Shown here one piece after another: positions 1-61,931 of a stretch of 64,000 bases of DNA (the first letter of the stretch is position 1; each line of letters begins with the position of its first letter). The position numbers were made by a program, and so were the translations under genes. Source of the DNA: Candidatus Sulfotelmatobacter sp. (GTDB lineage Bacteria; Acidobacteriota; Terriglobia; Terriglobales; Acidobacteriaceae). The stretch lies in NCBI GenBank assembly GCA_035695545.1, contig DASRRV010000019.1, positions 411 through 64,410 of the forward strand, given 5' to 3'. The notes beneath the pieces are model-generated. The model saw only the letters and a program-made list of their open reading frames with translations, had not been told where the DNA came from and made no database searches.

Positions 1-171
1 CGTTCGCCGCACGTGGACAAGAAGTCGCGGGAGCAGTTTGAGATCCGCACCCACAAGCGGCTGCTCGACATTCTCGAGCCAACGCAGCAGACGGTGGACG
101 CGCTGATGAAGCTCGATCTGCCGGCGGGCGTGGATGTGGAGATCAAGGCGTTCGGGAAAGAACACAAGTAG
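1..171 (+). CDS. rpsJ: 30S ribosomal protein S10, C-terminal part (5' end outside window)
   Basis: Frame 1 is open from base 1: [56 protein letters not shown], stop TAG 169-171. The sequence is S10-like and lies ahead of rplC. Confidence 0.9.
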
Positions 172-195
172 GCTGTCAGCTCTCAGCTGCTGAGG
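171..195. repeat. GCTNNCA/CAGCT-type heptamer word array
   Basis: ggctgtcagctctcagctgctgagg, directly after the rpsJ stop. Confidence 0.6.
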
Positions 196-201
196 TCGAT
201 T

Positions 202-456
202 GTGCAGAGATGCCCGAAATGCGGATATCGCGAAGGGACGGACTGGCCGGCGATCTTGTGGGTTGTAGCATTTAGCGTTTTGTACCTGGTCTTTATAGTT
301 GTGCCAGATCACGTACCTGTGGCTTTTTTCTTGTTTCAATCGGGAATAACGTGGAAGACGTGGCGCGAAAAGAAATATCGGGATGAGTATCTGACGCTGA
401 ACCCGCCGCCGACGCAGCGCGTGAAGGATCATTTAAAGGCTAGCCCCAGCCAATAG
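202..456 (+). CDS. small hypothetical membrane protein (CPKCG motif plus hydrophobic helix) between rpsJ and rplC
   Basis: ORF-track ORF of 84 aa with a GTG start. GAGG at 191-194 lies 7 nt upstream. Hydrophobic stretch [18 protein letters not shown]. Same strand as the operon. No family recognised. Confidence 0.4.
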
Positions 457-485
457 CCACTGAGCCAAGCTGGATGGAGAAGGAA

Positions 486-1214
486 ATGGCAACGAAGGTC
501 GCAGGCATTTTGGGCAAGAAGGTCGGCATGACGCAGCTGTTTGACTCGAAGGGCGATGTTCGTCCGGTCACAGTGCTGCAGGCCGGTCCATGCGTGGTCA
601 CGCAGCACAAGTCGGCCGCGAAAGACGGCTATGAGGCGGCCCAGATTGGCCTGGTTGAATTTGTGAAAGAGTCGCGGCTGACCAAGCCTGCGAAAGGACA
701 CCTGGCGAAGAACAATCTTCCGCCGGTGAAGTTCATGCGCGAAGTGCCGCTCGAAGTCGAGGGCGCGGAAGATGGAGCGGTGAAGGTTGGCGACCGCGTG
801 CTGGTCGAAATTTTCGACGGAGAGCGCTTTGTCGACATCGTGGGAATCAGCAAGGGACGCGGCTTTCAGGGCGTCGTGAAGCGGCATCATTTCGGTGGCG
901 GTCCTAAGTCGCACGGTTCGATGTTTCAGATCACCGGTTCGATCGGGTCTTCGGCATTCCCGTCTCGTGTGTTCAAGGGGATGCGGATGTCGGGACACAT
1001 GGGCAACCAGAAGGTGACGGCTCGCAACCTGCGTGTGCTGGGTGTCGACAAGGACGAAAACTTGCTCGTAGTTGAGGGCAGCGTCCCGGGACCGCAGGGT
1101 GGATACATCGTAATTACGAAGGCGAAGAAACCGCCGAGAGAGCGCCGCGGATTCGCGGGTTCGGCGACGGTCGATCCGTTGAAGGCTGCGAAGAGAGCTG
1201 CGAAGAAGGCATAG
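486..1214 (+). CDS. rplC: 50S ribosomal protein L3
   Basis: MATKVAGILGKKVGMTQLF... is typical of L3. I prefer ATG 486 (GGAG 8-11 nt upstream) over the ORF-track start at 474. Confidence 0.97.
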   Translation: MATKVAGILGKKVGMTQLFDSKGDVRPVTVLQAGPCVVTQHKSAAKDGYEAAQIGLVEFVKESRLTKPAKGHLAKNNLPPVKFMREVPLEVEGAEDGAVKVGDRVLVEIFDGERFVDIVGISKGRGFQGVVKRHHFGGGPKSHGSMFQITGSIGSSAFPSRVFKGMRMSGHMGNQKVTARNLRVLGVDKDENLLVVEGSVPGPQGGYIVITKAKKPPRERRGFAGSATVDPLKAAKRAAKKA

Positions 1215-1245
1215 GAGTACCGGGTACTGAGTACCGAGTACTGAG
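1215..1245. repeat. GAGTACY word array
   Basis: gagtaccgggtactgagtaccgagtactgag in the rplC-rplD spacer. Contains the self-complementary AGTACC-G-GGTACT. Confidence 0.7.
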
Positions 1246-1253
1246 AAAAAGAC

Positions 1254-1988
1254 ATGGCAACGATAGACATACACAATCTGAGCGGCGAGAAAGTCGGTAC
1301 GCTCGACCTGGCCGACGAGATTTTCGGCGCGGTCAACGAGGATCTGCTGTGGGAAGCGGTGAAGCATTACCGCGCCGGGCAGCGCGCCGGAACCCACAAG
1401 ACCAAGGGCCGCTGGGAAGTTTCCGGCTCGGGCAAGAAGCTCTGGAAGCAGAAGGGCACAGGCCGGGCCCGCATCGGGTCGATCCGATCGCCACTGTGGC
1501 GGCATGGCTACACAGTGCATGGTCCCGTACCGCGGTCATATGATTACACCTTCCCGCGCAAGAAACTGATGGGCGCGCTGCGTTCGGCACTGGCGTCGAA
1601 GCTGGCCGATGGCAAGCTGATCGTGGTGAACGCATTCGACGTGAAGGAACCAAAGACCAAGGAATTCCGCAAGGCGCTGAATTCGTTGAAGGTTGACAAG
1701 ACGGTTCTGATCGTTGAAGAAGCGAAGCACGAGAACCACAATCTGCAGTTGAGCGCGCGCAATATCGACGGACTGGAACTGGTTCGCAGCAATGAAGTGC
1801 ATCCATATCACCTGCTGCGCTATGACCGCGTGATTTTCTCGCAGCCGGCCATCGAGAAACTGCAGGTTTCGCTGAAGTCTTCAGTGTCGAAGCGGCAGCA
1901 TAAGCCGAACCAGGACGAAGGCGCGAAAAAGCCAACGCACGAGCGGCGCCGGCGGGCGCGGCACGATAAAGCGGCGGAGGTAGCCTGA
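1254..1988 (+). CDS. rplD: 50S ribosomal protein L4 (with basic C-terminal extension)
   Basis: L4-like sequence (GTGRARIGSIRSPLWRHGY) in the conserved operon position. Confidence 0.97.
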   Translation: MATIDIHNLSGEKVGTLDLADEIFGAVNEDLLWEAVKHYRAGQRAGTHKTKGRWEVSGSGKKLWKQKGTGRARIGSIRSPLWRHGYTVHGPVPRSYDYTFPRKKLMGALRSALASKLADGKLIVVNAFDVKEPKTKEFRKALNSLKVDKTVLIVEEAKHENHNLQLSARNIDGLELVRSNEVHPYHLLRYDRVIFSQPAIEKLQVSLKSSVSKRQHKPNQDEGAKKPTHERRRRARHDKAAEVA

Positions 1989-2281
1989 TGAAATCCGCAT
2001 ACCAGATCATTCGCCGTCCGGTGATTACCGAGAAGGGCCTGGCCATCAAGGAGAACCAGAACACGCTGGTCTTCCAGGTGGCACCGAAGGCGACCAAGAC
2101 GGAAATCAAGGAAGCGGTGCAATCGATTTTCAAAGTGAAAGTGCATTCGGTGCGCACGGCCACGTATCCGGGAAAAGAACGGCGTCGCGGAAAGTTCGCG
2201 GGCTATCGTCCGGACTGGAAGAAAGCGTACGTGCGGTTGCGGTCCGGCGAGAAGATGCCGGAGTACGCGCAGAATCTGTAG
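1988..2281 (+). CDS. rplW: 50S ribosomal protein L23
   Basis: Its ATG overlaps the rplD stop (TGATG). L23-like sequence and position. Confidence 0.96.
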   Translation: MKSAYQIIRRPVITEKGLAIKENQNTLVFQVAPKATKTEIKEAVQSIFKVKVHSVRTATYPGKERRRGKFAGYRPDWKKAYVRLRSGEKMPEYAQNL

Positions 2282-2286
2282 AAACA

Positions 2287-2366
2287 CAGCTATCAGCTGT
2301 CAGCCGTTCGCGATCCGTAAAAGCGACGGTGCAAGGCTGAGGGCTGATAGCTGAAAGCTGAGAGCT
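2287..2366. repeat. CAGCT/GCTGA word-array hairpin
   Basis: The left arm cagctatcagctgtcagcc (2287-2305) pairs with the inverted right arm ggctgagggctgatagctgaaagctgagagct (2335-2366). The right arm ends 4 nt before the rplB ATG. Confidence 0.8.
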
Positions 2367-2370
2367 TCAT

Positions 2371-3195
2371 ATGCCAATTAAGACTTATCGACCGACCACG
2401 CAGACGCTGCGGTATCGCACGACGCTCGTCAATGACGACATTACGACCAAGCATCCGCATAAGCCGCTGGTAGAACCCAAGAACCGGACGGGCGGACGTC
2501 GCAACTCGGGCGACATGACGATGCGCTTCATCGGTGGCGGCCACAAGCGCAAACTCCGGATCATCGACTTCAAGCGCGACAAGACCGGGATTCCGGCGAC
2601 CGTGACCACGATTGAATACGATCCGAATCGCTCGTCGCGCATCGCGCTGCTGGCGTACGCTGATGGCGAAAAGCGCTACATCATTCAGCCGGAAGGGTTG
2701 AAGGTAGGGCAGAAAGTTGTGAGCGGACCTGAAGCCGACATCCTTGTGGGGAATGCGCTGCCGCTGCGGAACATTCCGCCTGGCACGCAGATCCACAATC
2801 TGGAACTGAAACCCGGCAAGGGCGCGCAGATGGTGCGCTCAGCGGGCGGCGCGGCGCAGTTGATCGCGAAGGAAGAAGAGTATGCGCTGGTGAAGCTACC
2901 TTCCGGCGAGACGCGCAAGATTTCGCAGGATTGCATGGCGACGATCGGACAGGTCGGCAATATCGACCATGAGAACGTCACCATCGGCAAGGCGGGACGG
3001 TCGCGCTGGCTGGGAAAGCGTCCGCACAATCGCGGCGTCTCCATGAATCCGGTCGACCATCCGCACGGCGGCGGTGAAGGCAAGACGTCCGGCGGACGGC
3101 ATCCGGTGACCCCGTGGGGCCAGCCGACGCGCGGATACAAGACTCGCAACAACAAGCGCACGGATAAGTTCATTGTGAACCGGCGCAGCAAGTAA
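2371..3195 (+). CDS. rplB: 50S ribosomal protein L2
   Basis: 274 aa with [19 protein letters not shown] and [13 protein letters not shown] motifs. Confidence 0.98.
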
Positions 3196-3246
3196 GCAGG
3201 TTCCTTACCCGCAGAGAATGAGGGTTTGGGTTAACAAAAGTTTGTT

Positions 3247-3281
3247 AGCTAAGAGCTAGAAGCTAAAAAGCTAGAGGCTGA
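3247..3281. repeat. AGCTARN heptamer word array
   Basis: agctaagagctagaagctaaaaagctagaggctga. Ends 5 nt before the rpsS ATG. Confidence 0.75.
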
Positions 3282-3286
3282 TTTTT

Positions 3287-3643
3287 ATGGCACGTTCAAC
3301 GAAAAAAGGCGCGTTCGTGGATGCTTACCTGCAGGCGAGGGTAGAGGGCATGAATGCGCGCAATGAAAAGAAAGTGCTGCGCACGTGGTCGCGGCGTTCG
3401 ACCGTGATCCCCGAGATGGTTGGGCACACGATCGCGGTGCACAACGGGAAGAAGTTCATCCCGGTGTACGTAACCGAGAACATGGTGGGGCACAAGCTGG
3501 GCGAGTTCAGCTTCACGCGCAACTTCAAGGGACACTCCATGAAGGCTGCGACTGAAGTTGCGGCCAAGCCGGCCGGTATCCCGGGTGGTCCGGGAGCGAT
3601 TGCTCCGGCGGCTTCGTCAGCGCCAGCGGCGCCGAAGGCCTAA
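3287..3643 (+). CDS. rpsS: 30S ribosomal protein S19 (Ala/Pro-rich C-terminal tail)
   Basis: [12 protein letters not shown]...[23 protein letters not shown], in the operon position. Confidence 0.97.
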
Positions 3644-3646
3644 AGA

Positions 3647-3672
3647 CAGCTTCTAGCTACTAGCTAGCTAGG
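3647..3672. repeat. CTAGCTA word array
   Basis: cagcttctagctactagctagctagg. Shares the 13-mer cagcttctagcta with the array at 8601. Confidence 0.75.
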
Positions 3673-3693
3673 CAAAAGACTGAGACAACGAAT

Positions 3694-4158
3694 ATGGAAT
3701 TTCGAGCGGAAATGCGTTACTTGCGCGTGTCGCCCCAGAAGGCGCGGCTGGTGCTGGATTTGATCAAGGGGCGGCGCGTGGAAGAAGCGCGCAACACGCT
3801 GGCATTCACCAAGAAGCGCGTGGCGGCGCACCTGGGCAAGCTGCTGCAGTCGGCGCTCGACAACGCCAACTTTCTCGCGACTGAGAAAGGACTCGACGTC
3901 GAGATCGACAACCTGTACGTGAAGAGTGCGATCGCGAACGACGGTCCGCGCATGAAGAGGATTCGTCCGGCGCCGCAGGGACGCGCGTACCGGTATCAGC
4001 GGCGCATTGCGCACATCGAGCTGATCCTGGCGGAGCGCGGGAAGAGCGGCGAAGTTTCCACCAGTGCGGGCAGCGGCGAGGCAGCGGCTCCGGCTAAGGC
4101 CAAGCGACGGGCTCCGGCGGTGAAAGCGGCCGGCAAGAAGAACGCGGCGGCGAAGTGA
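3694..4158 (+). CDS. rplV: 50S ribosomal protein L22 (extended C-terminus)
   Basis: RYLRVSPQKARLVLDLIKGRRVEEA is L22-like, in the operon position. Confidence 0.97.
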   Translation: MEFRAEMRYLRVSPQKARLVLDLIKGRRVEEARNTLAFTKKRVAAHLGKLLQSALDNANFLATEKGLDVEIDNLYVKSAIANDGPRMKRIRPAPQGRAYRYQRRIAHIELILAERGKSGEVSTSAGSGEAAAPAKAKRRAPAVKAAGKKNAAAK

Positions 4159-4159
4159 C

Positions 4160-4230
4160 CGCAGTTTTGCGGGCGTGAGCCCGCAGCGGTCATCCTGAGC
4201 GTGCTTTGCGAAGGGTCTGAATTTCGGCAG
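4160..4230. repeat. REP-like element with GTCATCCTGAG...GAAGGGTC module
   Basis: Contains ggtcatcctgagcgtgctttgcgaagggtctga in the rplV-rpsC spacer. The same module occurs at 5029-5039 (reverse complement), 8105-8115 (reverse complement) and 50557-50567. Confidence 0.7.
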
Positions 4231-4264
4231 TTTGGTTCGAGATGGGTTTGATTTAGGAGAAGCA

Positions 4265-4930
4265 ATGGGACAAAAAGTCCATCCTTATGGTTTTCGCCTC
4301 GGCTATACCAAGCCGTGGAAGTCGCGCTGGTTTGCCGAGCGGGATTACGACAAGCAGCTGCATGAAGACGTCAAGCTGAAGGCTGAACTGAAAGACAAGC
4401 TGAAGTCGGCGGGTGTCAGCTCGATTGAAATCGAGCGTCCGGGCAACAAGCTGCGCATCATTATCAAAACGGCGCGGCCGGGAATCATCATCGGACGCAA
4501 GGGCGCGGAAATCGACAAGCTCAAGGGCGAGCTGCAGAAACGCACGGCGGGCAAAGATATTTTTGTCGATATCCAGGAAGTGCACAAGCCTGAGCTCGAC
4601 GCGCAGCTGGTTTCGGAGTCAATCGCCCTGCAACTGGAAAAGCGCGTGGGCTTCCGGCGCGCGATGCGCAAGGCGGTGGACTCGGCGCTGCGCTTCGGAT
4701 GTAAGGGAATCAAAGTCCGCGTGAGTGGACGGTTGAACGGCAACGAAATCGCGCGGTCGGAGTGGTATCTGCAGGGGCGGTTGCCGCTGCATACGCTGCG
4801 CGCTGATATCGACTACGGCTTTACTGAGGCGCGCACGACGTACGGCGTCATCGGGGTGAAGTGCTGGGTGTACAAGGGCGAGATTCTGCCGACGAAGAAA
4901 CGCGAGCCGCAGGCGGCAGGCGGCTTCTAG
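4265..4930 (+). CDS. rpsC: 30S ribosomal protein S3
   Basis: [14 protein letters not shown]... I prefer ATG 4265, which has AGGAG upstream, over the ORF-track start at 4232. Confidence 0.97.
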
Positions 4931-4931
4931 C

Positions 4932-5039
4932 AGGGAAGCGCGCCAGACGCGCGATTTAGTAATCTCGCAACGAACGCGAGATTGATCGCGCGGCGCGCCC
5001 AGATCTTTCGCTCGACAAAAACGTGTCGCTCCGGATGAC
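4932..5039. repeat. about 108-nt structured REP-like element, copy A
   Basis: Begins agggaagcgcgccagacgcgcgattt, identical over 26 nt to copy B at 8012. It has internal hairpins and ends ...ctccggatgac. Lies in the rpsC-rplP spacer. Confidence 0.85.
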
Positions 5040-5054
5040 AACGAGAGAACTCTT

Positions 5055-5474
5055 ATGTTGATGCCAAAGAAAGTGAAGTATCGCAAGCAACAGCGCGGGC
5101 GCATGACCGGCAAGGCCTGGCGCGGGTCCACGCTGGCGTTCGGCGATTTCGGCCTGAAGGTGCTGGAGCCGGGATGGATCACCGACCGGCAGATTGAAGC
5201 CAGCCGTGTGGCCATGACGCGTTTCGTGAAGCGCGGCGGAAAGATTTGGATCCGCGTTTTTCCCGACAAGCCAGTCACGAAGAAGCCGGCTGAAACCCGT
5301 ATGGGTAAGGGCAAAGGCGCTCCTGATCACTGGGTTGCAGTCGTGAAGCCGGGAAAGATTTTGTTCGAGATGGAAGGCGTGAGCTTGCAGGACGCGAGCG
5401 AGGCGATGCGGTTGGCATCGCACAAGCTGGCTCTGCGGACCACGCTGGTGAAGCGCGAAGGCGCAGCGCATTAA
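5055..5474 (+). CDS. rplP: 50S ribosomal protein L16
   Basis: [17 protein letters not shown]... is L16-like. Confidence 0.98.
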
Positions 5475-5567
5475 GAAGCTGTGAGCAGCGAGCTTTGAGT
5501 TGCGAGTCAACCGTTGCTTGTGGGGGTTGACTTGCCCGCTCACCGCTCAAAGCTCACGGCTCGAAGC
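5475..5567. repeat. GTGAGC/GCTCA word-array hairpin
   Basis: The left arm gaagctgtgagcagcgagctttgagttgcgagtcaacc pairs with the right arm ggttgacttgcccgctcaccgctcaaagctcacggctcgaagc. Lies in the rplP-rpmC spacer. Confidence 0.8.
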
Positions 5568-5579
5568 TGAAGGAACTTT

Positions 5580-5789
5580 ATGAAGGCAGACAAGATTCGC
5601 AATTTAACGGAAGATGAGCTTCGTCACCAGGAGAGTGAGCTGGCGGACCAGCTCTTCAAGCTGAAGTTTCAGCTGAACATGGGACAGACGGAGAGCCTGA
5701 AGAAGATTCGCGGGCTGCGCAAGGACATTGCGCGCGTCAAGACGATCATCGGAGAGCGCGAGCGCTCGGCCGCGGGTGAGAAGAAATAA
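5580..5789 (+). CDS. rpmC: 50S ribosomal protein L29
   Basis: 69 aa, LRNLTEDELRHQESELADQLFKLKFQ is L29-like. Confidence 0.95.
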   Translation: MKADKIRNLTEDELRHQESELADQLFKLKFQLNMGQTESLKKIRGLRKDIARVKTIIGERERSAAGEKK

Positions 5790-5802
5790 TGGAGAAACGA
5801 TA

Positions 5803-6117
5803 ATGGCGGAAACAACAGCAGCCGCGAAGGTTCAAGGCCGCCGCAAGGAGGTGGTTGGAGAAGTGGTCGCCAACCGCATGCAGAAGACGATTGTGGTCAA
5901 GGTGACGCGGAAGAAGTCGCATCCGTTCTACGGACGCGTGATCGCGCGCAACAAGAAGTTTTACGCCCACGACGAGAAGAACGAGGCGCACGTTGGCGAT
6001 GTTGTGCGGATCGAGGAGACTCGGCCGCTGTCGAAACTGAAGCGCTGGAAGCTGAAGGATATTGTGCGCAAGGCGGCGCTGGTGCCGGAAGCGGCGGTTG
6101 AGGTTCCGGGCGCATAA
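5803..6117 (+). CDS. rpsQ: 30S ribosomal protein S17
   Basis: The S17 core is GEVVANRMQKTIVVKVTRKKSHPFYGRV. I prefer ATG 5803 because the ORF-track start at 5728 overlaps rpmC. Confidence 0.95.
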   Translation: MAETTAAAKVQGRRKEVVGEVVANRMQKTIVVKVTRKKSHPFYGRVIARNKKFYAHDEKNEAHVGDVVRIEETRPLSKLKRWKLKDIVRKAALVPEAAVEVPGA

Positions 6118-6150
6118 CGCGCGAGTGAGATAAAGAGGGAGATTGACGCC

Positions 6151-6522
6151 ATGGCTGTGATGATGAGATCGATGCTGGAGGTCGCCGACAACTCCGGCGC
6201 CCGCAAGCTGCAGATGATCCTGCCGCTGGGCGGTTCGACCGGATTGAATGCCGGGCTGGGCGACATAATCACGGCCGCCGTGAAAGAGTCGGCGCCCGAG
6301 GGTCAGGTGCAGAAGGGCAAGGTCGTGAAGGCGGTCATCGTGCGCACGCGCAAGGAGCATCGGCGTCGCGATGGAACGTATATCCGCTTCGACCAGAATG
6401 CCGCGGTGTTGATCAACGATGCCGGCGAACCGGTGGGCACGCGCGTGTTTGGTCCGGTAGCTCGCGAGTTGCGCGAGAAGAAGTTTTTGAAGATTGTTTC
6501 GCTGGCGCCGGAAGTCATTTAG
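6151..6522 (+). CDS. rplN: 50S ribosomal protein L14
   Basis: [12 protein letters not shown]...[23 protein letters not shown] is L14-like. Confidence 0.97.
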
Positions 6523-6525
6523 CAA

Positions 6526-6633
6526 GTTTCAAGGTTTCAGAGTTTCAAGGTTTCAAGGTGCCTTGGGATTCGGGAGCCGCGTAGAGCCAAGACTGTTTAG
6601 CTCTGAAACACTGCAACCTTGAAACTTTGAAAC
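6526..6633. repeat. GTTTCAAR octamer word-array hairpin
   Basis: The left arm gtttcaag-gtttcaga-gtttcaag-gtttcaag (6526-6558) pairs with the inverted right arm ctgaaacactgcaaccttgaaactttgaaac (6603-6633). Lies in the rplN-rplX spacer. Confidence 0.9.
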
Positions 6634-6641
6634 GGAATTTT

Positions 6642-6983
6642 ATGAGAACTGTTAGAACTGAAAACAAGCGAGTGGATATCCGGCGGAACGACACCGTGAA
6701 GGTGATTACGGGCCGCGATAAGGGCAAGGAAGGGCGCGTGCTGCGCGTGTTTCCGAACGATGCGAAGCTCCTGGTGGAGCACGTGATGATGGTGAAAAAG
6801 CACGTGCGGCCCAACCCGAACCGCAACATCAAGGGCGGCATCGCGGAGCAAGAGAGCCGGATCGCGATCTCCAATGTGCAGTTGGTGTGTCCGACCTGCG
6901 GGCCGGTGCGCATTGGGCATGAAGAGCGCGGCGACCGCAAAGTGCGGGTGTGCAAGAAGTGCGATACAACGCTGGATAAGTAG
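6642..6983 (+). CDS. rplX: 50S ribosomal protein L24 with C-terminal CxxC...CxxC
   Basis: KOW motif DTVKVITGRDKGKEGRVLRV. I prefer ATG 6642 because the ORF-track start at 6627 lies inside the repeat hairpin arm. Confidence 0.95.
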   Translation: MRTVRTENKRVDIRRNDTVKVITGRDKGKEGRVLRVFPNDAKLLVEHVMMVKKHVRPNPNRNIKGGIAEQESRIAISNVQLVCPTCGPVRIGHEERGDRKVRVCKKCDTTLDK

Positions 6984-7077
6984 ATTTGGTAATTGGGGAA
7001 ATTTAGTAATTTGGTAATTGAAAACCAAGAAGGACTTTGATTTTCAATTCCTCAGCCCGATTACAAAATTACAAAAT
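6984..7077. repeat. GGTAATT/TTACAAAA word-array hairpin (AT-rich variant)
   Basis: atttggtaattggggaaatttagtaatttggtaattgaaaacc ... gattttcaattcctcagcccgattacaaaattacaaaat. Lies in the rplX-rplE spacer. Confidence 0.75.
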
Positions 7078-7148
7078 ATCTCACGAACCGGTACACGTCG
7101 GCTAAGAACTGACACTCCGAAACCGTGAGAGGAAGTTGACGAAACGAC

Positions 7149-7769
7149 ATGGCAAAAGACAAAAAAGGATCGAAAGAGTCGGTGCAGGAGCAGAAGGCGC
7201 CGGATCAAGCGCGGCATAGCGCGAAAGAGCGTCCGCGGCTGCGCGCGAAGTTTGAGAAGGACGTGGCTCCGGCTCTGTTGAAAGAGCTGGAACTGAAGAA
7301 CCCGATGGCCGTTCCGCGCCTGAACAAGATTGTAGTGAACATGGGCGTGGGCGAAGCGACGCAGAACGCCAAGGTGCTCGATCCGGCGGTCAACGAACTG
7401 GGCCAGATCACGGGTCAGAAGCCTGTCGTGACCCGCGCGAAGAAGTCGATCGCGGCGTTTAAGGTGCGCGAAGGCCAGTCGATCGGCGCGATGGTGACGT
7501 TGCGCGGCGACCGCATGTACGAATTCCTGGACCGGCTGGTGAACATTGTTCTGCCCCGCGTGCGCGATTTCAAGGGAGTGTCGACCAAGTCGTTCGACGG
7601 GCGCGGAAACTTCACGCTCGGGCTGCACGATCAGTTGATTTTCCCCGAGATCTCGTACGAGAAGGTCGACAAGCAGAAGGGCATGAACGTAACGATTGTG
7701 ACCACTGCGGCCAACGACAATCAAGCGCGGACGTTGTTGAAGTATCTGGGAATGCCTTTTAGAGCATAG
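7149..7769 (+). CDS. rplE: 50S ribosomal protein L5 (N-terminal Lys/Glu-rich extension)
   Basis: The L5 core is [16 protein letters not shown]...[15 protein letters not shown]. Confidence 0.97.
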
Positions 7770-7802
7770 GTTGCAAAGTTTCAAGGTTTCAATGTTTCAA
7801 CC
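7770..7802. repeat. GTTTCAAR word array, forward arm only
   Basis: gttgcaaagtttcaaggtttcaatgtttcaacc in the rplE-rpsN spacer. No clear inverted partner. Confidence 0.8.
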
Positions 7803-7827
7803 GTAAGGCGAAGTTCAGGAGCTAAGT

Positions 7828-8013
7828 TTGGCAACTACAGCAAAACGAGTCAAAGACGCGAAGAAGCCCAAGTTCTCCACGCGCAAGCACAACCGCTGCA
7901 AGCTGTGCGGTCGTCCGCGCGCTTTCCTGCGCAAGTTCGGCATTTGCCGCTTGTGCTTCCGCGGGTTGGCGCTGCGCGGTGAGATTCCTGGGGTTTCGAA
8001 GTCGTCCTGGTAG
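7828..8013 (+). CDS. rpsN: 30S ribosomal protein S14 type Z (zinc form)
   Basis: 61 aa with CKLCGR...CRLCFR. TTG start with AGGAG upstream. Confidence 0.95.
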
Positions 8014-8116
8014 GGAAGCGCGCCAGACGCGCGATTTCTTGGTTCGCAAAAGCGCGAACGATTCGCGCGGCGTGGATAGGTCCTTCGGCCGCAAAAGACG
8101 CGGCCTCAGGATGACC
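8012..8116. repeat. about 105-nt structured REP-like element, copy B
   Basis: agggaagcgcgccagacgcgcgattt ... ggtccttcggccgcaaaagacgcggcctcaggatgac. Lies in the rpsN-rpsH spacer. Confidence 0.85.
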
Positions 8117-8196
8117 AAGGCAACAACCAAGTAACAAGCTGCCGCAGGTTCTCCGCTTCACTCGGAGCGAACGGGCAGCCAGAGGAGAAGCAAACG

Positions 8197-8595: not shown

Positions 8596-8600
8596 AAGAG

Positions 8601-8634
8601 CAGCTTCTAGCTATTAGCTTCTAGCTACTAGCTA
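8601..8634. repeat. CTAGCTA word array
   Basis: cagcttctagctattagcttctagctactagcta in the rpsH-rplF spacer. Confidence 0.8.
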
Positions 8635-8742
8635 AAGGCAGCGATTTGTAAAGTTTGATTCAGCTTGAAACCGATTCGGCGAATGCCGGACTGAAAACCA
8701 GAGCAGCCTGGCTAGAAGCCAGGAGTGAGAAGCCAAAAGCTT

Positions 8743-9336: not shown

Positions 9337-9345
9337 GTTTTAGAC

Positions 9346-52846: not shown

Positions 52847-52881
52847 GTGCGTTACCGCTTGCCTGTGCGTTACCGCTTGCC
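52847..52881. repeat. exact tandem direct repeat, 2 x GTGCGTTACCGCTTGCC separated by 1 nt
   Basis: Copies at 52847-52863 and 52865-52881 are identical. A partial GGCAAGC lies upstream at 52829-52835 in the opposite orientation. Located in the divergent spacer between the OPT gene and the secreted-protein gene. Confidence 0.9.
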
Positions 52882-53240: not shown

Positions 53241-54113
53241 ATGAAACTGGCGTTTCGCGGTATCGTGTGCTCCCTGTCGCTTCTGTTGTTGACGTTCTTC
53301 GTTCTGCCTTTGCGCGCGCAGGAGGGTCCCCTCGACCCCAATCCTCCCAAAGACGCCACTCCTGAAGACATCATCAAACGCTTCGCCGCCAAAGAGACAG
53401 AATTTGCCAAGGCGCGCGACCAGTACACCTTCCGCCAGGACGTAAAAGTTCAGACCGTTGACGGAGATACGGTCGACGGCGAATACCGTGAAGTGTTCGA
53501 CGTGCTTTTCGACGACAAGGGCAAGCGCATCGAGAATGTCGTCTTCGCTCCGTCGTCAAGTCTCACCAAGATCTACATGTCGCAGGAAGACATGGAAGAT
53601 ATCCGCCACAAGCTGCCATTCGTGCTGACGACCGAAGACTTGCCGCAATACAACATCCTCTATGTCGGCCAACAGCAGGAAGACGAACTGCACTGTTACG
53701 TCTTCGACATCGCCCCAAAACAGATCGAAGGCAAGAAGCGTTACTTCCAGGGACGAGTCTGGGTCGACGGCCACGACTTTCAGATCGTGAAGACCTACGG
53801 CAAAACCGTTCCCGACATCCGCAAGAAGCACGGCGACGAGGAGAATCTCTTTCCCAAGTTCACCACCTGGAGACAACAGATCGACGGCGCGTACTGGTTC
53901 CCGGTCTACACCAAGGCCGACGATGAATTGCACTTCAAGACTGGCGACGTGCGCATCAAAGAAATCGTCAAATACGAAGACTACAAGCGGTTCGGCACCA
54001 ACACCAAGATCATCTTCGAAGGCAAAGAATTGCCCAAGGATCAGAAGCCGGACGCGAAAAAGCCGGATCAGCAGAAGCCGGACGCCACGCAGCCGCCTCA
54101 GAAGCCGCAATAA
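53241..54113 (+). CDS. secreted hypothetical protein (LolA-like outer-membrane lipoprotein-sorting family by recollection), Lys/Pro/Gln-rich tail
   Basis: I prefer ATG 53241, which gives the signal peptide MKLAFRGIVCSLSLLLLTFFVLPLRAQ. The ORF-track start at 52899 is upstream of it. Confidence 0.55.
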   Translation: MKLAFRGIVCSLSLLLLTFFVLPLRAQEGPLDPNPPKDATPEDIIKRFAAKETEFAKARDQYTFRQDVKVQTVDGDTVDGEYREVFDVLFDDKGKRIENVVFAPSSSLTKIYMSQEDMEDIRHKLPFVLTTEDLPQYNILYVGQQQEDELHCYVFDIAPKQIEGKKRYFQGRVWVDGHDFQIVKTYGKTVPDIRKKHGDEENLFPKFTTWRQQIDGAYWFPVYTKADDELHFKTGDVRIKEIVKYEDYKRFGTNTKIIFEGKELPKDQKPDAKKPDQQKPDATQPPQKPQ

Positions 54114-54118
54114 GGCAA

Positions 54119-54152
54119 AGTTTCAAAGTTTCAGGGTTTCAAAGTTTCAGAG
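54119..54152. repeat. GTTTCAAR word array, forward arm only
   Basis: agtttcaaagtttcagggtttcaaagtttcagag after the stop of the secreted protein. Confidence 0.85.
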
Positions 54153-54228
54153 TGGAAGCACTTGGCGCATGCTTTCGCGGAAGAGACTCAATCAGACGAT
54201 TGAGGAGACCTAGTACCTGATAGATCTC

Positions 54229-54528
54229 TTAGGACAATTTGTTGTACCGGTCCGCATCGAGATAGGTCAGGTCCGATGCGATCAGTGGTTGCGCATCCAG
54301 TTCCAGCAGTGAACCCCTCGCCTGCCCTAGAAAATGCAAGAATTCACCAGGGGTGAGCCTTCCCTGACCCCCGGCGATGTTCGGTACGACCGAAACTACT
54401 GCCCGCCTGACCTGAGAGGTCAATCCGTAGATTTCTGCTTGGGGAAACTGCTCCGTGGATCGATAGACCTCAACAGCCAGTGCTCTGGCCTTCTGCCAAA
54501 CGAACAATTCCCGATAGGAACGAGCCAC
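54229..54528 (-). CDS. four-helix-bundle protein (23S rRNA intervening-sequence protein family)
   Basis: 99 aa with YRELFVWQKARALAVEVY...LTSQVRRAVVSVVPNIAGGQGR...FLGQARGSLLEL, the characteristic family pattern. Confidence 0.85.
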   Translation of the reverse strand: MARSYRELFVWQKARALAVEVYRSTEQFPQAEIYGLTSQVRRAVVSVVPNIAGGQGRLTPGEFLHFLGQARGSLLELDAQPLIASDLTYLDADRYNKLS

Positions 54529-54540
54529 GTCTGAGTCTAG

Positions 54541-54622
54541 GTTTCAAAGTGACAAAGTTTCAAGGTTTCAAAGTTAAATCGCGAAGCGAGTGTTCCACTT
54601 TGAAACTCTGAAACCTTGAAAC
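54541..54622. repeat. GTTTCAAR word-array hairpin
   Basis: gtttcaaagtgacaaagtttcaaggtttcaaag ... ccactttgaaactctgaaaccttgaaac between the four-helix-bundle and HNH genes. Confidence 0.9.
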
Positions 54623-54623
54623 A

Positions 54624-55232
54624 TCAATAAAAGAGATACTTCCGCCACTTATCATCCGACCTTCCCATGAGCCGCATGATGTGCCGGCTGGTGTGCAGGT
54701 TGAACGCACGTGGCTCCCTCATCAGCTTCATGCCCGATTCAAGCGGCGTCTGGTTCCCCTTGCGGCGGTTGCAGGCATGGCAGCAGGCAACCAGGTTCTC
54801 CCAGGTGGACGAGCCTCCGCGCGAGCGCGGGATCACGTGGTCCAGCGTCAACTCGCTCGAGGGCAGCACCGTGCCGCAGTATTGGCAGGTGTTGCGATCG
54901 CGCAGCAGAATGTTCTTACGCGACAACGCGCGGCTCTGATGAGGAATGCGGCGGTACTCAAGCAGCCGGATGACCGACGGCAACCGCATGGCGACACGAG
55001 CCGAGTGCAGGAAGTGTCCGTTCTCTTCCTCGGTCATGGCCACGCCCTTGAGCACGAGCACTAGCGCGCGCCGTGCGGCGCAGACGTTGATCGGCTCGTA
55101 AGACGCGTTGAGCACGAGGACGGGCGCGAGCAGAGCATGGCCGTCACCGGCCCGGTGCGTGGCCGCCGGCGTGAACAAGCCGGCGGCGAGCCGGGATGTT
55201 GGAGTCGCGTCGTGTTCCATCCGTGGAGACAT
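54624..55232 (-). CDS. HNH endonuclease
   Basis: CQYCG...[29 protein letters not shown]. Confidence 0.85.
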
Positions 55233-55243
55233 AAAATCTTAAC

Positions 55244-55325
55244 GCTTCAAGGTTTCAAAGTTTCAATGTTCCAAGTGCCTAAGCTCCGACCGGTGCAATG
55301 GCATCGTCTTTGAAACTTTGAAACC
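55244..55325. repeat. GTTTCAAR word-array hairpin
   Basis: gcttcaaggtttcaaagtttcaatgttccaag ... ctttgaaactttgaaacc between the HNH gene and comF. Confidence 0.85.
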
Positions 55326-56257
55326 TGCTTCTTGCAAACTTGCCTCTTGCTTAGATGCCAGCTTCAGCGTCCGCGCTACAGTTCCTACCCATACCTGGGC
55401 GGCCCCGGCGCGGAGGAGCACCCGCGCGCATTCCGACGCCGTGGTCCCCGTGGTATAGACATCATCCACGAGAAGCACCTCGCGGCCAGTGACTTCTGCG
55501 ACACGCGTAACGGCAAAGGCTCCCCGCATATGTTTTCGCGCCGCTGGTGGCTGGTCAAGCCGATCTGCGAGTGCGTATCCCGCTTCCGCAGCAACAGGTC
55601 ACTGACGAGCCGAAAGCGCTCGCCCCCGGGATACGGCTTGATCGCCGCCCGTGCGATCAACTCCGCCTGGTTGAATCCGCGCTGCCGGTGCCGGCTCTTG
55701 AACAGCGGCACGGGGATAACCAGCACCTCCTCCTGCCCGAACGAACTCTCCAGGTCCGCAATCGCCTCAGCCAGCATGCGTCCTAGTGCCTTCGCCGCCG
55801 GGCGCACTCCGTTGTACTTCAGCAGGTGCACCAGTTCGCGCAGACCGCCGTCATAGCTGCCATACGGCACCGCCCGGCTAAATGGATGCTCGATGCGGCA
55901 GCATACCGGGCATCGCCGCAAGCCGTCGGGATCGGTCAGCGCATACGACGAAAGTACGCGCTCTCCGCACACGGAGCACACCTTACCCATCACCGGCTGA
56001 ATTTCATCCAGGCAATCGGGACACACCGGCAGCCGGGAAATGTTCAGCAGAGGTATGCCGCAGATGCGGCAGTCGGAGGGAAACAGAACAGAGAAGAGAC
56101 TTTCGGCAGCCCGGGTGGCCCAGCCTTGCGCCCAATCTTGTACGAGTCGGGTCTTCTGCAAAACAATAGAAGTCCCCGCTACTGCGATACTGGCCTGGCT
56201 AGCCCGGATTCGGTCCTCACTACTGCTGAAGACGGCCTCCTTGTTACTCCCGCGCAC
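55263..56257 (-). pseudogene. comF: ComF-family (amidophosphoribosyltransferase-like) gene split by one frame break near 55526-55533
   Basis: ORF 55385-56257 carries the Cys-rich N-terminus and ...[14 protein letters not shown] 55263-55529 continues in another frame with RGAFAV...[21 protein letters not shown], the PRT motif. Confidence 0.75.
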
Positions 56258-59440: not shown

Positions 59441-59516
59441 AAGCGGCTGCTAGAAGGGAAGGCCCCCGCCTGCTAAACTCATCCGTTTGTCGTAGAGACG
59501 TTGCGTGCAACGTACG

Positions 59517-59557
59517 TTTCAATGTTTCAAAGTTTCAGTGTTTCAAAGTTTCAATGT
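59517..59557. repeat. GTTTCAAW word array, forward only
   Basis: gtttcaatgtttcaaagtttcagtgtttcaaagtttcaatg after the ankyrin gene. Confidence 0.85.
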
Positions 59558-59565
59558 CTGAATAA

Positions 59566-59611
59566 CTCAAAGCTCAATGCTCAATGCTCAATGCTCATGC
59601 TCAATGCTTCA
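59566..59611. repeat. GCTCAAT heptamer word array
   Basis: ctcaaagctcaatgctcaatgctcaatgctcatgctcaatgcttca. Immediately follows the GTTTCAA array and lies upstream of the S9 peptidase. Confidence 0.85.
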
Positions 59612-59631
59612 CTGATCTGAGGAGTTCCCTT

Positions 59632-61869
59632 ATGCGCCGTCTTCTTCTCTCCCTGCTGGTTCTTGCCTTCACTCTTCCCGCCGCAGCCCAGGCCAAGCAT
59701 CCCTTCACCTTCGAAGACATGATGAAGCTGAAGCGCGTGGGCGAACCCGTAGTCTCGCCAGACGGCAAGTGGGTAATCTTCAGCGTGGTCGACGTCGATC
59801 TAGAGGCGAATACGAAAACACCGCACATCTGGATCGTGCCCGCGGCTGGTGGCCAGGAGCGCGAGCTGATCGCCGATCAGGACGGAGACCGCCCCCGCTG
59901 GGCGCCGGACGGCAACCGCTTCGCGTTCCTGTCGACCAAAGAAGGCGGCTCGCAAGTTTGGATCGCGGAGTTCGACGGCGCCTTAGGAACAGTCAAGGGC
60001 GTTACCAAGCTGACGTCGATTGCGACGGAAGCTGGCGGCGAGCTGTGGTCGCCGGACGGATGGAACATCCTTTTTACCTCAGATGTCTATCCCGAATGCG
60101 ACGGGTCCCCGGAGCCAGAACGCTCCTGCAACGCGAAGAGAGTTAAGGCAGCCGAGCAATCACAGGTCAAAGCGTTGATTTTTGATCGTCTCCTTTATCG
60201 TCATTGGAATGCATACAAAGAAGGCAAACGAACGCACATCTTCGCGATCGGGCTCGACTGGCCGTCCCTGTCTCAGCCACATCCCGCACAAGGGGGGATG
60301 AGCGGAAGTCTGCCAGTTGAGCGCGATCTGACCCCGGGCGACTACGACGCGCCGGTGTTCTCTCTTGGCGGGCAGGACGACTATGCCTTCTCGCCCGACG
60401 GTAAAGAGATTTGCTACGCGTCGAATCACGACAAGAACGAAGCCGCTTCCACCAACAACGATCTGTGGATCGTCCCGGTCAACGGAGGAGCTGCGAAGAA
60501 CATCACCGCCGACAATCCCGCCAGCGACTCGACGCCGCTCTATTCGCCCGATGGCCGCTACATCGCCTACCGCGCTCAGCAGCGTCCCGGATACGAGAGC
60601 GACTGTTTCCGTCTGATGGTCTACGACAGGACTACAAGCAAATCCCGGGAACTGATGGTGCCCAAACCCGATTGGGTGGGCACGTTCATCTGGTCGCCGG
60701 ATTCGATTAGGGTCTTCTATGTCACGAACCACATGGAAGGGCGCAACGCGGGACAGATAAATGTAGTGTGGTCAACCACGGTTGACCCGGTGACGGTGAA
60801 GCCGAAACCTCTGCCCAAGAGCATTCCAGAAAACCTGCGAAAGGGTATGCGTCAGGTTTCCCGGATAACAATGGTTCAGGCGTGGGCTCGCGGGTACGCC
60901 GACGACCTCGCGTTCTCCCCTGATGGCAAGACCCTATTCTTTACGCGTATGTCGCTGCAGCGTCCGAATGAGATTTGGAACCTGATTCTCCCCGACCAGG
61001 TCGACTGGGACAACCTACCGACGGGCGAGGCGGTCACCCACTTCAACGACGCTGTACTCTCCGGCGTCTTAATGACTCCCCTCGAAACATTCTGGTTCCC
61101 CGGAGCGAATGGCGATGAAGTCGAAGGCTTACTCGTCAAGCCACCGAACTTCGACGCCTCCAAGAAATATCCCGTGAAGTTTCTGATCCACGGCGGGCCG
61201 CAGGGGGCCTGGGCGGATGACTGGAGCTTTCGCTGGAATGCCCAGTTGTTCGCGGCGCCAACTTCTGCGACGAGCAGCGGATACGTCGTCATCATGATCA
61301 ACTTCCACGGCTCGACCGGGTACGGACAGAAGTTCATCGACGCCATCAATGGCGACTGGGGCGGCGCTCCGTACGAAGACCTGATGAAGGGCCTCGACTA
61401 CGCGGAAGAGCATTATGGGTTTATTGATAAGTCGCGCGAGTGCGCGCTCGGCGCGAGCTACGGCGGATACGCCATCAACTGGATCCTCGGCCACACCGAC
61501 CGCTTCAAGTGCCTGGTGTCGCACGACGGCATGTTTAACGCCGAGTCGGCCTGGGGATCGACTGAAGAACTCTGGTTCAACAACTGGGAGTTCAAAGGGA
61601 CTCCCTACGACAATCGCGCCAGCTACGAGAAGTGGTCGCCGCATCAGTACGCGAAGAACTTCAAGACGCCGACGCTGGTAATCCACAGCCAGCGCGACTA
61701 CCGCCTCGACGTGAGCGAAGGCTTCCAGCTTTTCACGACTTTGCAAACGTTAGGTGTGCCCTCGAAGATGCTCTATTTCCCCGACGAAGGCCACTGGGTG
61801 CTCAAGCCGCAGAACGGCCGCCTCTGGTACAAGACGGTGAACGACTGGGTCGATCAGTGGACGAAGTAG
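59632..61869 (+). CDS. S9-family serine peptidase (prolyl oligopeptidase/acylaminoacyl peptidase type), secreted
   Basis: I prefer ATG 59632, which gives the signal peptide MRRLLLSLLVLAFTLPAAAQA. GASYGGY nucleophile elbow, with a beta-propeller N-terminal half. Confidence 0.9.
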   Translation: MRRLLLSLLVLAFTLPAAAQAKHPFTFEDMMKLKRVGEPVVSPDGKWVIFSVVDVDLEANTKTPHIWIVPAAGGQERELIADQDGDRPRWAPDGNRFAFLSTKEGGSQVWIAEFDGALGTVKGVTKLTSIATEAGGELWSPDGWNILFTSDVYPECDGSPEPERSCNAKRVKAAEQSQVKALIFDRLLYRHWNAYKEGKRTHIFAIGLDWPSLSQPHPAQGGMSGSLPVERDLTPGDYDAPVFSLGGQDDYAFSPDGKEICYASNHDKNEAASTNNDLWIVPVNGGAAKNITADNPASDSTPLYSPDGRYIAYRAQQRPGYESDCFRLMVYDRTTSKSRELMVPKPDWVGTFIWSPDSIRVFYVTNHMEGRNAGQINVVWSTTVDPVTVKPKPLPKSIPENLRKGMRQVSRITMVQAWARGYADDLAFSPDGKTLFFTRMSLQRPNEIWNLILPDQVDWDNLPTGEAVTHFNDAVLSGVLMTPLETFWFPGANGDEVEGLLVKPPNFDASKKYPVKFLIHGGPQGAWADDWSFRWNAQLFAAPTSATSSGYVVIMINFHGSTGYGQKFIDAINGDWGGAPYEDLMKGLDYAEEHYGFIDKSRECALGASYGGYAINWILGHTDRFKCLVSHDGMFNAESAWGSTEELWFNNWEFKGTPYDNRASYEKWSPHQYAKNFKTPTLVIHSQRDYRLDVSEGFQLFTTLQTLGVPSKMLYFPDEGHWVLKPQNGRLWYKTVNDWVDQWTK

Positions 61870-61874
61870 AGCAT

Positions 61875-61931
61875 CGGGCTATCGGCTTTCGGCGTCGGGC
61901 TTTCGGCGTCAGGCTTCGGGCTTCCGGCTCC
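61875..61931. repeat. GGGCTTTCGGCGTC-type word array
   Basis: cgggctatcggctttcggcgtcgggctttcggcgtcaggcttcgggcttccggctcc after the S9 peptidase stop. Confidence 0.75.

Follow-up and report, generated by a model that had tools for sequence, protein, structure and literature searches.

What fills the spacers between the ribosomal protein genes of certain Acidobacteriota, and why does one hairpin architecture recur there in so many different words? The question is raised by a 64,000-nucleotide (nt) stretch of contig DASRRV010000019.1 from the soil acidobacterium Candidatus Sulfotelmatobacter sp. (Terriglobales), which we refer to as the window and in which an earlier reading of the bare sequence (the original prediction) had noticed tandem arrays of 7-8 nt words, usually followed by the reverse-complement array. 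Positions 1-18214 of the window (+ strand) hold the S10-spc-alpha ribosomal superoperon, which is covered from the end of S10 as far as L17; a rimP-nusA-infB-DUF503-rbfA operon lies at 27735-34744, with unrelated genes beyond. According to our refined gene map, 87% of the window is coding and 13% non-coding. Our analysis shows that these arrays are real and lineage-wide and form an apparently undescribed variant of repeats that are known but unexplained, namely the short tandemly repeated repetitive (STRR) sequences and long simple sequence repeats (LSSRs). In the spacers of related genomes, the predicted hairpin is retained and remains anchored to the flanking stop and start codons while the words that build it change.

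Tandem Repeats Finder (TRF) returned 83 rows for the window, 53 of which have a period of 7, 8, 14 or 16 nt and merge into 41 arrays. Rows at these four periods numbered 17, 23, 7 and 6, respectively, versus 1.55, 1.35, 0.45 and 0.25 in 20 dinucleotide shuffles of the window, made in 500-nt blocks as a control for chance, which confirms that the tandem arrays are real and far beyond chance. Every locus named in the original prediction was found in place when the spacers were printed and compared with the TRF rows, and an independent count of GTTTCAAR loci also gave 13. The proposed confinement to non-coding DNA holds for 38 of the 41 arrays, and the three genic exceptions (at 4909, 17875 and 63959) are two-copy, GC-rich, chance-like matches. 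The array at 59566-59608 is counted as non-coding because the start of the peptidase gene was reassigned from 59584 to 59632, where a GAGGAG Shine-Dalgarno (SD) sequence and a signal peptide are found; the DUF503 start was similarly moved from 32873 to near 32926. These two cases illustrate a practical cost of the arrays, which yield spurious open reading frames (ORFs) and displace start-codon calls in the annotation of metagenome-assembled genomes (MAGs).

Of the spacers in the window, 23 of the 49 between co-directional genes, 2 of the 5 between convergent genes and none of the 4 divergent promoter regions carry arrays, and about half of the loci are inverted pairs. An array may begin on the stop codon itself, as at 7768 (L5 stop) and at 14027, where the TGA of map lies within the first unit. 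A scan of the window against Rfam 15 at the gathering score matched only a tRNA-Asp at 46857-46928 and assigned no family to the arrays.

To describe the folding of the window spacers, RNAfold energies were expressed as z-scores against 100 dinucleotide shuffles of each spacer. The long imperfect stems anticipated for the paired loci were borne out: a forward array is followed, after a gap of about 5-60 nt, by its reverse complement, the predicted stems span 25-35 bp, and their z-scores range from about -4 to -9. Partnerless arrays behave differently, with z-scores of zero or above and no hairpin in the regions beginning at 7770, 54114, 59500 and 61870; the first three correspond to arrays listed earlier as lacking an inverted arm (7770, 54119 and 59517), and the fourth array on that list, at 17541, indeed has no complementary array. 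The stretch at 172-230 also folds no more stably than its shuffles (z +0.2). Pairing in several registers was likewise recovered: among helices confined to a single diagonal, the strongest alternatives are shifted by exactly ±7/8 and ±14/16 nt, which corresponds to one or two units. For instance, the hairpin at 32840 reaches -54.1, -41.1, -36.0 and -28.3 kcal/mol at offsets of 0, -7, +7 and +14 nt, values from which the full register is calculated to dominate at equilibrium.

To place the window among its relatives, one genome per species was scanned with the L6 protein, which yielded 80 loci with an L6 identity of 87-98%. These loci carry the labels Candidatus Sulfotelmatobacter, Acidobacteriaceae or Terriglobales MAGs, their ribosomal genes share about 78-89% nucleotide identity with the window, and the L6 homologue search returned nothing outside the same clade. 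An exact look-up of the window's L5 protein had no hit. Across 1.45 Mb, TRF reported 1095 rows at period 7, 321 at period 8 and 362 at period 14. The complete loci hold 1204 arrays in 155 kb of spacer versus 73 in 1012 kb of genes, a 108-fold density ratio that, for the superoperon loci of related genomes, bears out the original prediction in the enrichment check suggested with it. Arrays are present in 905 of the 1797 spacers of at least 20 nt and never between the overlapping gene pairs L4-L23, L29-S17 and L15-SecY. The mean predicted energy of the relatives' spacers is -36.7 kcal/mol versus -27.7 in shuffles (1597 spacers), so that greater stability than shuffled controls is seen here as well as in the window. 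Spacers devoid of any TRF repeat are still structured, with a median z of -1.6 and 46% of them below -2.

The position of these folds relative to the genes is tightly defined. In 866 strongly folded spacers, the median distance from the stop codon to the beginning of the main stem is 3 nt (interquartile range, IQR, 1-5), and that from the end of the stem to the following start codon is 10 nt (IQR 4-22). In spacers with a core SD motif, this motif begins about 11 nt ahead of the start codon, which coincides with the stem edge. No boundary motif was found at the stem edges beyond A-rich flanks, nor any conserved GTAG or CGTC head.

The anatomy of the arms is equally regular. The median arm measures 31 nt (24-38 nt from the 10th to the 90th percentile), the gap between the two arrays has a median of 23 nt, and the periods of both arms are equal in 251 of 253 hairpins, while arm lengths are only weakly correlated (rho 0.24). 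When the units within the 3' arm are permuted, the predicted energy stays the same (-49.4 vs -49.6 kcal/mol, n=213), and the arms are therefore complementary as word families rather than unit by unit. This result argues against a recent fold-back duplication and against compensation at the level of single units, and a mirror-image order of units, which either process would leave, was rejected on the same grounds. Palindromic cores were also set aside as a defining trait, as their enrichment is modest (49% vs 31-35%) and comes mostly from AGCT.

Words, in turn, are diverse. The relatives contain 227 distinct canonical words, led by AACTGAG, AAGCTAG, AACGACC, AAACCTTG and AGAGCTG. Orthologous spacers, whose lengths lie between about 10 and more than 150 nt, differ in their words from genome to genome and retain the hairpin fold. 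The S13-S11 spacer, which bears arrays in 62 of 70 genomes, builds its hairpins from CAGTTCT, CAGTGKC, GTTTCAAR, GGTCGTT, TAGCTTC and other words. The view that spacers share one architecture but not their words, drawn originally from the families of the window, thus extends to orthologous spacers, a comparison that came out in favor of the original prediction. Part of the array content is nevertheless visibly inherited, as in L14-L24, where GTTTCAAR predominates together with a conserved loop, and in S8-L6, where CTAGCTA predominates. Words are shared in 13.7% of comparisons of the same spacer across genomes and in 9.6% of comparisons between different spacers of one genome, against a baseline of 4.45%.

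Arm sizes and spacer lengths vary among species. The one close pair of loci compared (L089 and L092, 99.28% identical over 20 kb) differs by 128 substitutions and 10 indels, none of which falls within an array. The arrays are not hypervariable contingency loci.

A wider scan of metagenomes with the L5 protein, which reached loci down to 62% identity, revealed a patchy distribution. At 69-74% L5 identity, arrays are dense in three loci (L147, L172 and L162) and absent in four (L156, L170, L159 and L153). L172 belongs to Pyrinomonadaceae, class Blastocatellia, as judged by the names of L5 proteins 97-98% identical to its own, and two further long contigs of Pyrinomonadaceae (L176 and L177) carry hairpins made of heptamer arrays in almost all of their ribosomal spacers. 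The words used there differ from those of the window's clade and include GATGAAT, AGGATGA, AAATCGT, GACAAGT, CGGAATG, GGGGTTA and TCAGCNN. The array-free locus L156 is labelled only as Acidobacteriota. Because arrays occur in Terriglobales and Pyrinomonadaceae and are missing in other loci, they are a patchy trait of at least two Acidobacteriota classes. A scan of viral contigs for (GTTTCAAR)x3 gave five stretches, mostly AT-rich and unrelated.

The Pyrinomonadaceae loci also bear on the polarity of the hairpins. In Terriglobales, 253 of 262 hairpins have the T-rich arm in first place, compared with only 2 of 17 in Pyrinomonadaceae, and a universal rule of that kind was therefore rejected. Start-like triplets follow a pattern common to both groups: ATG and GTG are more frequent in the 5' arm than in the 3' arm next to the ribosome-binding site (RBS) in three data sets (115 vs 16, 36 vs 16 and 43 vs 0; 194 vs 32 in total). 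This placement fits a constraint from translation and, with about nine independent families involved, is a lead rather than a result. In one Pyrinomonadaceae contig (L177, at 5101-5200 and 3234-3337), the 5' arms consist of AGGATGA or GATGAAT units in which an SD-like AAGGA lies 6 nt upstream of the ATG of the next unit, forming repeated pseudo-initiation sites; these are always in the arm distant from the real start codon.

With moderate confidence, we favor the explanation that the arrays are slippage-born simple sequence repeats (SSRs) of the STRR or heptamer-LSSR kind, which are kept in transcribed spacers by a hairpin pairing that preserves the proximity of stop codon and RBS. Replication slippage would give rise to the arrays and alter their size. 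Neither 7 nor 8 is a multiple of 3, so such changes would shift the reading frame, and arrays would be purged from genes and gather in non-coding DNA. In transcribed spacers, they would survive chiefly as two complementary arrays whose RNA folds into a stem of about 30 bp, looping out an extra 60-150 nt and leaving the stop codon beside the next RBS. A terminating ribosome would then have to melt the outer turn of the stem and would free the region next to the following SD, whereby translational coupling or re-initiation would be preserved across a long spacer. As a side effect, each cistron would gain a long duplex that could block 3' exonucleases or be cut by RNase III. Since any unit can pair with any other, the gain or loss of units would merely alter stem length, and since the stem is indifferent to unit number, words could turn over while the hairpin stays. 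Register-free pairing is a plain property of the predicted folds; its evolutionary role would be robustness to slippage, which follows if the arms are complementary as word families and not unit by unit.

Several observations weigh against this explanation. Transcription of the spacers is assumed from the operon structure, and in many spacers the SD lies partly within the stem (mean paired fraction 0.44), which could mean repression rather than coupling. Compared with the antisense strand, the sense strand is predicted to fold more stably by 3.5 kcal/mol, and it is the more stable one in 1167 of 1582 spacers, but dinucleotide shuffles are equally biased (-3.1 kcal/mol), so the asymmetry is a composition effect and the strand comparison was rejected as a G:U test of RNA-level selection. 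G:U mismatches exceed A:C mismatches in the stems by a small margin, 1385 vs 1167 (54:46). Neither the strand-folding nor the mismatch-type test thus gave an independent signal of RNA-level selection, and of the proposal that the transcript folds, the stable predicted stems stand while selection on RNA and selection on DNA are not told apart. Word sharing between the spacers of one genome is about 2.2 times the baseline, and the order of the arms is fixed for each word family, without exception in about 700 paired arrays of the Terriglobales set; pure in-place slippage predicts neither, and together they hint at the spread of whole hairpins or ectopic conversion. The L089/L092 pair shows no change in array copy number, so slippage is not fast. 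Finally, the inverted-pair form accounts for about 58% of arrays in the relatives, and 523 of 1260 arrays (about 40%) have no partner arm, which means that the hairpin is not obligatory.

The alternative that survives best holds that the hairpins are themselves selected regulatory RNA, acting as sites for processing by RNase III or RNase E or as barriers to exonucleases that set the half-lives and stoichiometry of the ribosomal cistrons, with periodic words merely the easiest evolutionary route to a long stem. RNase III needs a duplex of roughly 20 bp, which the predicted stems exceed, and the narrow range of arm lengths, the persistence of the hairpin through word turnover and the structure of repeat-free spacers would all be expected. 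REP stem-loops are hypothesized to help stabilize mRNA (PMC3733652). This alternative fits poorly with the patchiness of the arrays, which are missing from about half of the relatives' spacers and from some acidobacterial lineages altogether, and with the wide range of orthologous spacer lengths. It is also at odds with the lack of single-unit compensatory changes and of a strand-specific G:U signal beyond composition, and we consider it possible but doubtful.

A bolder version of the coupling idea is, in our judgment, rather unlikely. It would make the arrays an evolvable coupling device across Acidobacteriota, in which the stem clamps the stop codon to the next RBS, the ribosome melts the outer turn, and the number or register of units tunes the ratios of ribosomal proteins. 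If true, such a device would replace the tight gene overlaps of other bacteria, and the near-absence of ATG and GTG from the 3' arm would be one of its design rules.

Small mobile hairpin elements, similar to repetitive extragenic palindromic (REP) sequences and bacterial interspersed mosaic elements (BIMEs) or to miniature inverted-repeat transposable elements (MITEs), could also have supplied the arrays if copied by a REP-associated tyrosine transposase (RAYT), another enzyme or ectopic gene conversion, each word family then being a lineage. The fixed arm order, the excess of word sharing within a genome and the wholesale swapping of spacer contents between species point in this direction. 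Copies of one family, however, share neither core nor loop: the nine GTTTCAAR loops of the window are unrelated sequences of 4 to 58 nt, unit numbers vary, and no GTAG or CGTC head or other boundary motif delimits the copies. Orthologous L14-L24 loops are vertically inherited, sharing of words by the same spacer across genomes exceeds that within a genome, and a Pfam scan of 40 non-ribosomal ORFs of the window found no transposase or RAYT. We therefore judge a mobile origin improbable. By eye, no target-site duplications were obvious in the window spacers, for which no systematic search was made.

We give little credence to the idea that the words are recognized by a protein (S1, Csp or CsrA-like) that binds specific RNA or DNA sequences, with tandem copies of a word recruiting several protein molecules. 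Its best support comes from the single arrays, which are biased in strand relative to gene direction and purine-rich in the sense orientation (AGCTGAG 38:7, AACTGAG 38:6 and AAGAGCT 28:2, counted as types). They end a median of about 13 nt before start codons, as TAACTGA repeats do, and the top word of the clade, GAACTGA, is one base from TAACTGA. A common binder is hard to reconcile with 227 words of two unit lengths that have no common motif, with the entirely different vocabulary of Pyrinomonadaceae, and with the duplex in which most arrays would be hidden.

A role at the DNA level, with cruciform-prone palindromes that affect supercoiling, nucleoid organisation or replication independently of transcription, would suit the strand symmetry of inverted repeats and the lack of an RNA-specific signal. 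We regard it as highly improbable, given that stem edges are tied to stop and start codons, that divergent promoter regions are free of arrays, that single arrays follow gene direction and that ATG and GTG are avoided in the RBS-side arm.

The weakest alternative, that of intrinsic terminators, attenuators or pause hairpins inside the operon, relies on the presence of stable hairpins directly after stop codons and can be all but dismissed, because more than 20 such hairpins lie within one essential operon, their arms are AT-rich (54-55% A+T), a terminator scan of the + strand of the window flagged no word hairpin, none of which has a T-tail there, and the superoperon's own end, directly after L17, is the best + strand terminator, a canonical GC-rich stem with a T-run at 18234-18257. 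Identity with intrinsic terminators was accordingly rejected. A near-identical GC-rich stem (GGGCACGGC...GCCGTGCC) occurs both there and, with no T-run, between rpoA and L17 at 17585-17608.

How, then, do the arrays compare with repeats already described? The original prediction knew of no named family, and we found no described match either; relatives do exist in the STRR sequences, the heptanucleotide LSSRs and the TAACTGA repeats. Our literature search joining Acidobacteria or Sulfotelmatobacter with repeats found no description of such arrays, and one on STRR words gave nothing beyond primer sequences. Known bacterial heptamer repeats are mostly scattered direct arrays, and to our knowledge their function has been an open matter since about 1990. 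What is new here is the phylum, the use of 7-nt together with 8-nt units, a vocabulary of hundreds of words, the prevalence of inverted pairs that are tied to stop and start codons, and the near-saturation of the superoperon.

The closest likeness is to cyanobacterial STRR sequences. STRR2 (TTGGTCA) and STRR1 (CCCCAGT) resemble the words TTGGTCG and GGCCAGT. In Calothrix, Nostoc and Anabaena, STRR sequences are 7-bp tandem units, and between hupS and hupL they are hairpin-capable, for which a role in transcript stability or translational coupling was proposed (PMC2670836). Both systems consist of tandem heptamers at many dispersed intergenic sites, operon-internal spacers included, and can form hairpins; TTTTGAA/TTCAAAA arrays lie near start codons in Nostoc, and a TTTTGAA array is found in locus L162 too. 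Dispersed intergenic heptamers (the 1095 period-7 rows) and operon-spacer hairpins are thus present in our loci, while the cyanobacterial host and the STRR1-3 words are not. The acidobacterial arrays further differ in their 8-nt units, in the size of their vocabulary, in being mainly inverted pairs and in filling nearly every superoperon spacer.

Heptanucleotides were reported to be the most abundant class of long SSRs in many genomes, with slippage of the polymerase as the proposed cause (Mrazek 2007, cited in PMC4679880 and PMC4692102). According to these accounts, LSSRs have units of 5-11 nt, with heptamers the commonest, and those whose unit length is not divisible by 3 lie between genes. 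The period spectrum of our arrays, which peaks sharply at 7 and then at 8, the excess of 7/8-nt tandem units beyond chance and the exclusion from coding DNA agree with this description. The LSSR surveys describe direct arrays, and paired register-free hairpins and stop/start anchoring do not figure in that account. In Acidobacterium capsulatum, the acidobacterium in which SSRs were surveyed, 92% of them reportedly lie in coding regions (PMC8717266).

TAACTGA direct repeats stand just upstream of start codons, within ribosomal operons, in Beggiatoaceae (MacGregor 2015, PMC4679880); they are known from marine Beggiatoaceae, Cyanobacteria and Bacteroidetes, and a protein-binding role was proposed for them in Beggiatoaceae. 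Forward heptamer arrays near starts in ribosomal operons, the commonest word of the clade (GAACTGA/AACTGAG) and the median distance of 13 nt are reminiscent of them. In that system, one word predominates and a single indirect repeat was observed, whereas the acidobacterial words are many, at least 1 nt off, and mostly arranged in hairpins. Heptamers of the type Xanthomonas GGGAATC and Nostoc GGGGA(T/C)T are intergenic and keep the same gene neighbours across related species, and those of Xanthomonas vary extensively in length and sequence, some as inverted pairs (PMC4692102). They are G-rich and were studied as quadruplex formers, in contrast to the AT-rich duplex formers described here, among which one GGGGTTA/TAACCCC hairpin in L177 is an exception.

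REPs are 20-40 bp long, are conserved in sequence among copies, carry a GTAG or CGTC head and are linked to RAYTs. Both REP/BIME elements and our arrays are extragenic imperfect palindromes in transcribed spacers and at 3' ends, and the roles proposed for the former include mRNA stabilisation, termination and supercoiling. The arrays differ in having no conserved sequence and in arms that are internally periodic; REP/BIME identity was rejected on the diversity of words, the lack of a head or boundary motif and the unrelated loops, and MITE identity on the differing internal loops within one family and the lack of a conserved core. Separately, the window holds a second dispersed, non-periodic element, with copies of about 110 nt at 4931-5045 (S3-L16) and 8013-8125 (S14-S8) that are 78% identical, form nested GC-rich hairpins (GGGAAGCGCGCCAGACGCGCGATTT...) and end in GGATGAC. 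A related motif, GTCATCCTGAGCG, also occurs at 4189-4201, 11435-11447 and 50557-50569. It has the appearance of a REP-like family that is separate from the word arrays.

These comparisons define what the arrays may offer. The most conserved operon of bacteria is here nearly saturated with heptamer-type repeats, and more than 80 genomes with orthologous spacers, changed words and a retained hairpin, in two classes with separate vocabularies, constitute a natural comparative system. It allows one to address whether such repeats are junk, sites of mRNA processing or means of translational coupling, why units measure 7-8 nt, and how long inverted repeats remain stable. The individual arrays of the window are listed in Table 1.

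Table 1. Word arrays of the window, with coordinates, strand and supporting evidence.
Position	Strand	Feature	Evidence
1215-1245	+	GAGTACY x4.4, self-complementary, filling L3-L4	TRF; fold -12.5 kcal/mol, z -4.5
2287-2366	+	Hairpin, L23-L2: CAGCTRT arm, loop, GCTGAKA arm	-43.8 kcal/mol, z -6.2 (2282-2370); alternative register +7 nt, -33.2
3247-3281	+	Single purine-rich AGCTARR array just upstream of S19	spacer z -1.1
3647-3672	+	CTAGCTA array, S19-L22	TRF
5475-5568	+	Hairpin, L16-L29: GTGAGCN arm and NGCTCAC arm	-49.7 kcal/mol, z -4.7 (5475-5579)
6525-6633	+	L14-L24: GTTTCAAR x4 arm, 45-nt loop, YTTGAAAC arm; loop conserved in orthologues	-42.6 kcal/mol, z -3.8
6984-7077	+	L24-L5: GGTAATTK arm and AATTACAA arm	TRF; fold
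7768-7800	+	Single GTTTCAAR array, begins on L5 stop codon	TRF; z +0.3
8601-8634	+	CTAGCTW x4.7 array, S8-L6; same word dominant there in 40/64 relatives	TRF
9717-9799	+	Hairpin, L18-S5: GTGAGCN / GCTCAVA	-38.2 kcal/mol, z -3.9; registers -7, -14, +7 nt
10540-10613	+	GTTTCAAR hairpin, L30-L15; its end is the L15 start	TRF; fold
14027-14089	+	Hairpin, map-infA: GTGAGCW / GCTCAAW; map stop codon in first unit	TRF; fold
14331-14356	+	GCTGAVA array, infA-rpmJ	TRF
14474-14583	+	rpmJ-S13: degenerate GAGCC arm and GCTCAWA x8.4 array	TRF score 83; fold
15000-15087	+	Hairpin, S13-S11: GTTTCAAR x4 / YTTGAAAC x6	-44.4 kcal/mol, z -8.6 (14996-15093)
15549-15616	+	GTTTCAAR hairpin, S11-S4	spacer print; fold
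16325-16393	+	GTTTCAAR hairpin, S4-rpoA	TRF; fold
17542-17568	+	Single GTTTCAAR array after rpoA; no complementary array	TRF
17665-17700	+	Single purine-rich AGCTARG array; ends 8 nt before L17 start	TRF
18868-18886	+	Weak CAGCCNT x2.7 array after ORF 18362-18859	TRF; z +0.1
28252-28326	+	GTTTCAAR hairpin filling rimP-nusA	-31.6 kcal/mol, z -8.8 (28254-28322); Pfam
32843-32922	+	Hairpin, infB-DUF503: CAGTTCT x4.6 / AGAACTG x4.1	-54.9 kcal/mol, z -9.0 (32840-32930)
34750-34860	+	GTTTCAAR / CCTTGMAA hairpin between DHH phosphoesterase and PMT_2 genes	TRF; fold; Pfam
45000-45033	-	Single array flanked by two minus-strand genes; reads CAGCTNT in their sense orientation	TRF
54116-54153	+	Single GTTTCARR x4.8 array, 3 nt past stop of ORF 52899-54113	TRF; z +0.2
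54541-54622	-	GTTTCAAR hairpin directly 3' of HNH gene	TRF; fold; Pfam
55246-55324	-	GTTTCAAR hairpin between ComF-like and HNH genes	-34.3 kcal/mol, z -4.7
59516-59608	+	Two adjoining single arrays, GTTTCAAW x5.2 and GCTCAAT x6.3, upstream of peptidase start 59632	TRF; z +1.6
61883-61933	+	GC-rich CGGCKTY 7/14-mer array after peptidase stop; no hairpin	TRF; z +1.2

Other features of the window were noted beside the arrays. GTTTCAAR hairpins stand on both sides of the gene for an HNH endonuclease (54624-55232, - strand; region 54114-55335), and about 330 nt at 54160-54530 have no called gene. The S10-L3 spacer measures 302 nt here versus a median of 92 nt in the relatives; it contains an 87-codon ORF, from GTG 202 to TAG 465, whose product starts with a zinc-ribbon-like CPKC motif and continues with a hydrophobic stretch; this ORF may encode a small membrane protein inserted in the S10 operon. 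The OPT transporter gene and ORF 52899-54113 diverge from a 57-nt region that is filled by a perfect direct repeat of 18 nt (GTGCGTTACCGCTTGCCT x1.9, at 52847-52881), which may be an operator or promoter element.

Repeats also occur within two genes. A gene for a modification enzyme of the MbnB/TglH/ChrH family, which acts on ribosomally synthesized and post-translationally modified peptides (RiPPs), lies at 41947-43173 and has a GGAGGC-type Gly-rich repeat at 41965-42032; the ORFs beside it have no Pfam match, and the region 40170-43681 may be a small RiPP cluster. Finally, the gene for a BlaR1-like M56 peptidase contains 21-nt in-frame coding tandem repeats at 21768-21824 (2.7 copies) and 22052-22116 (3.1 copies), which are unrelated to the spacer arrays.

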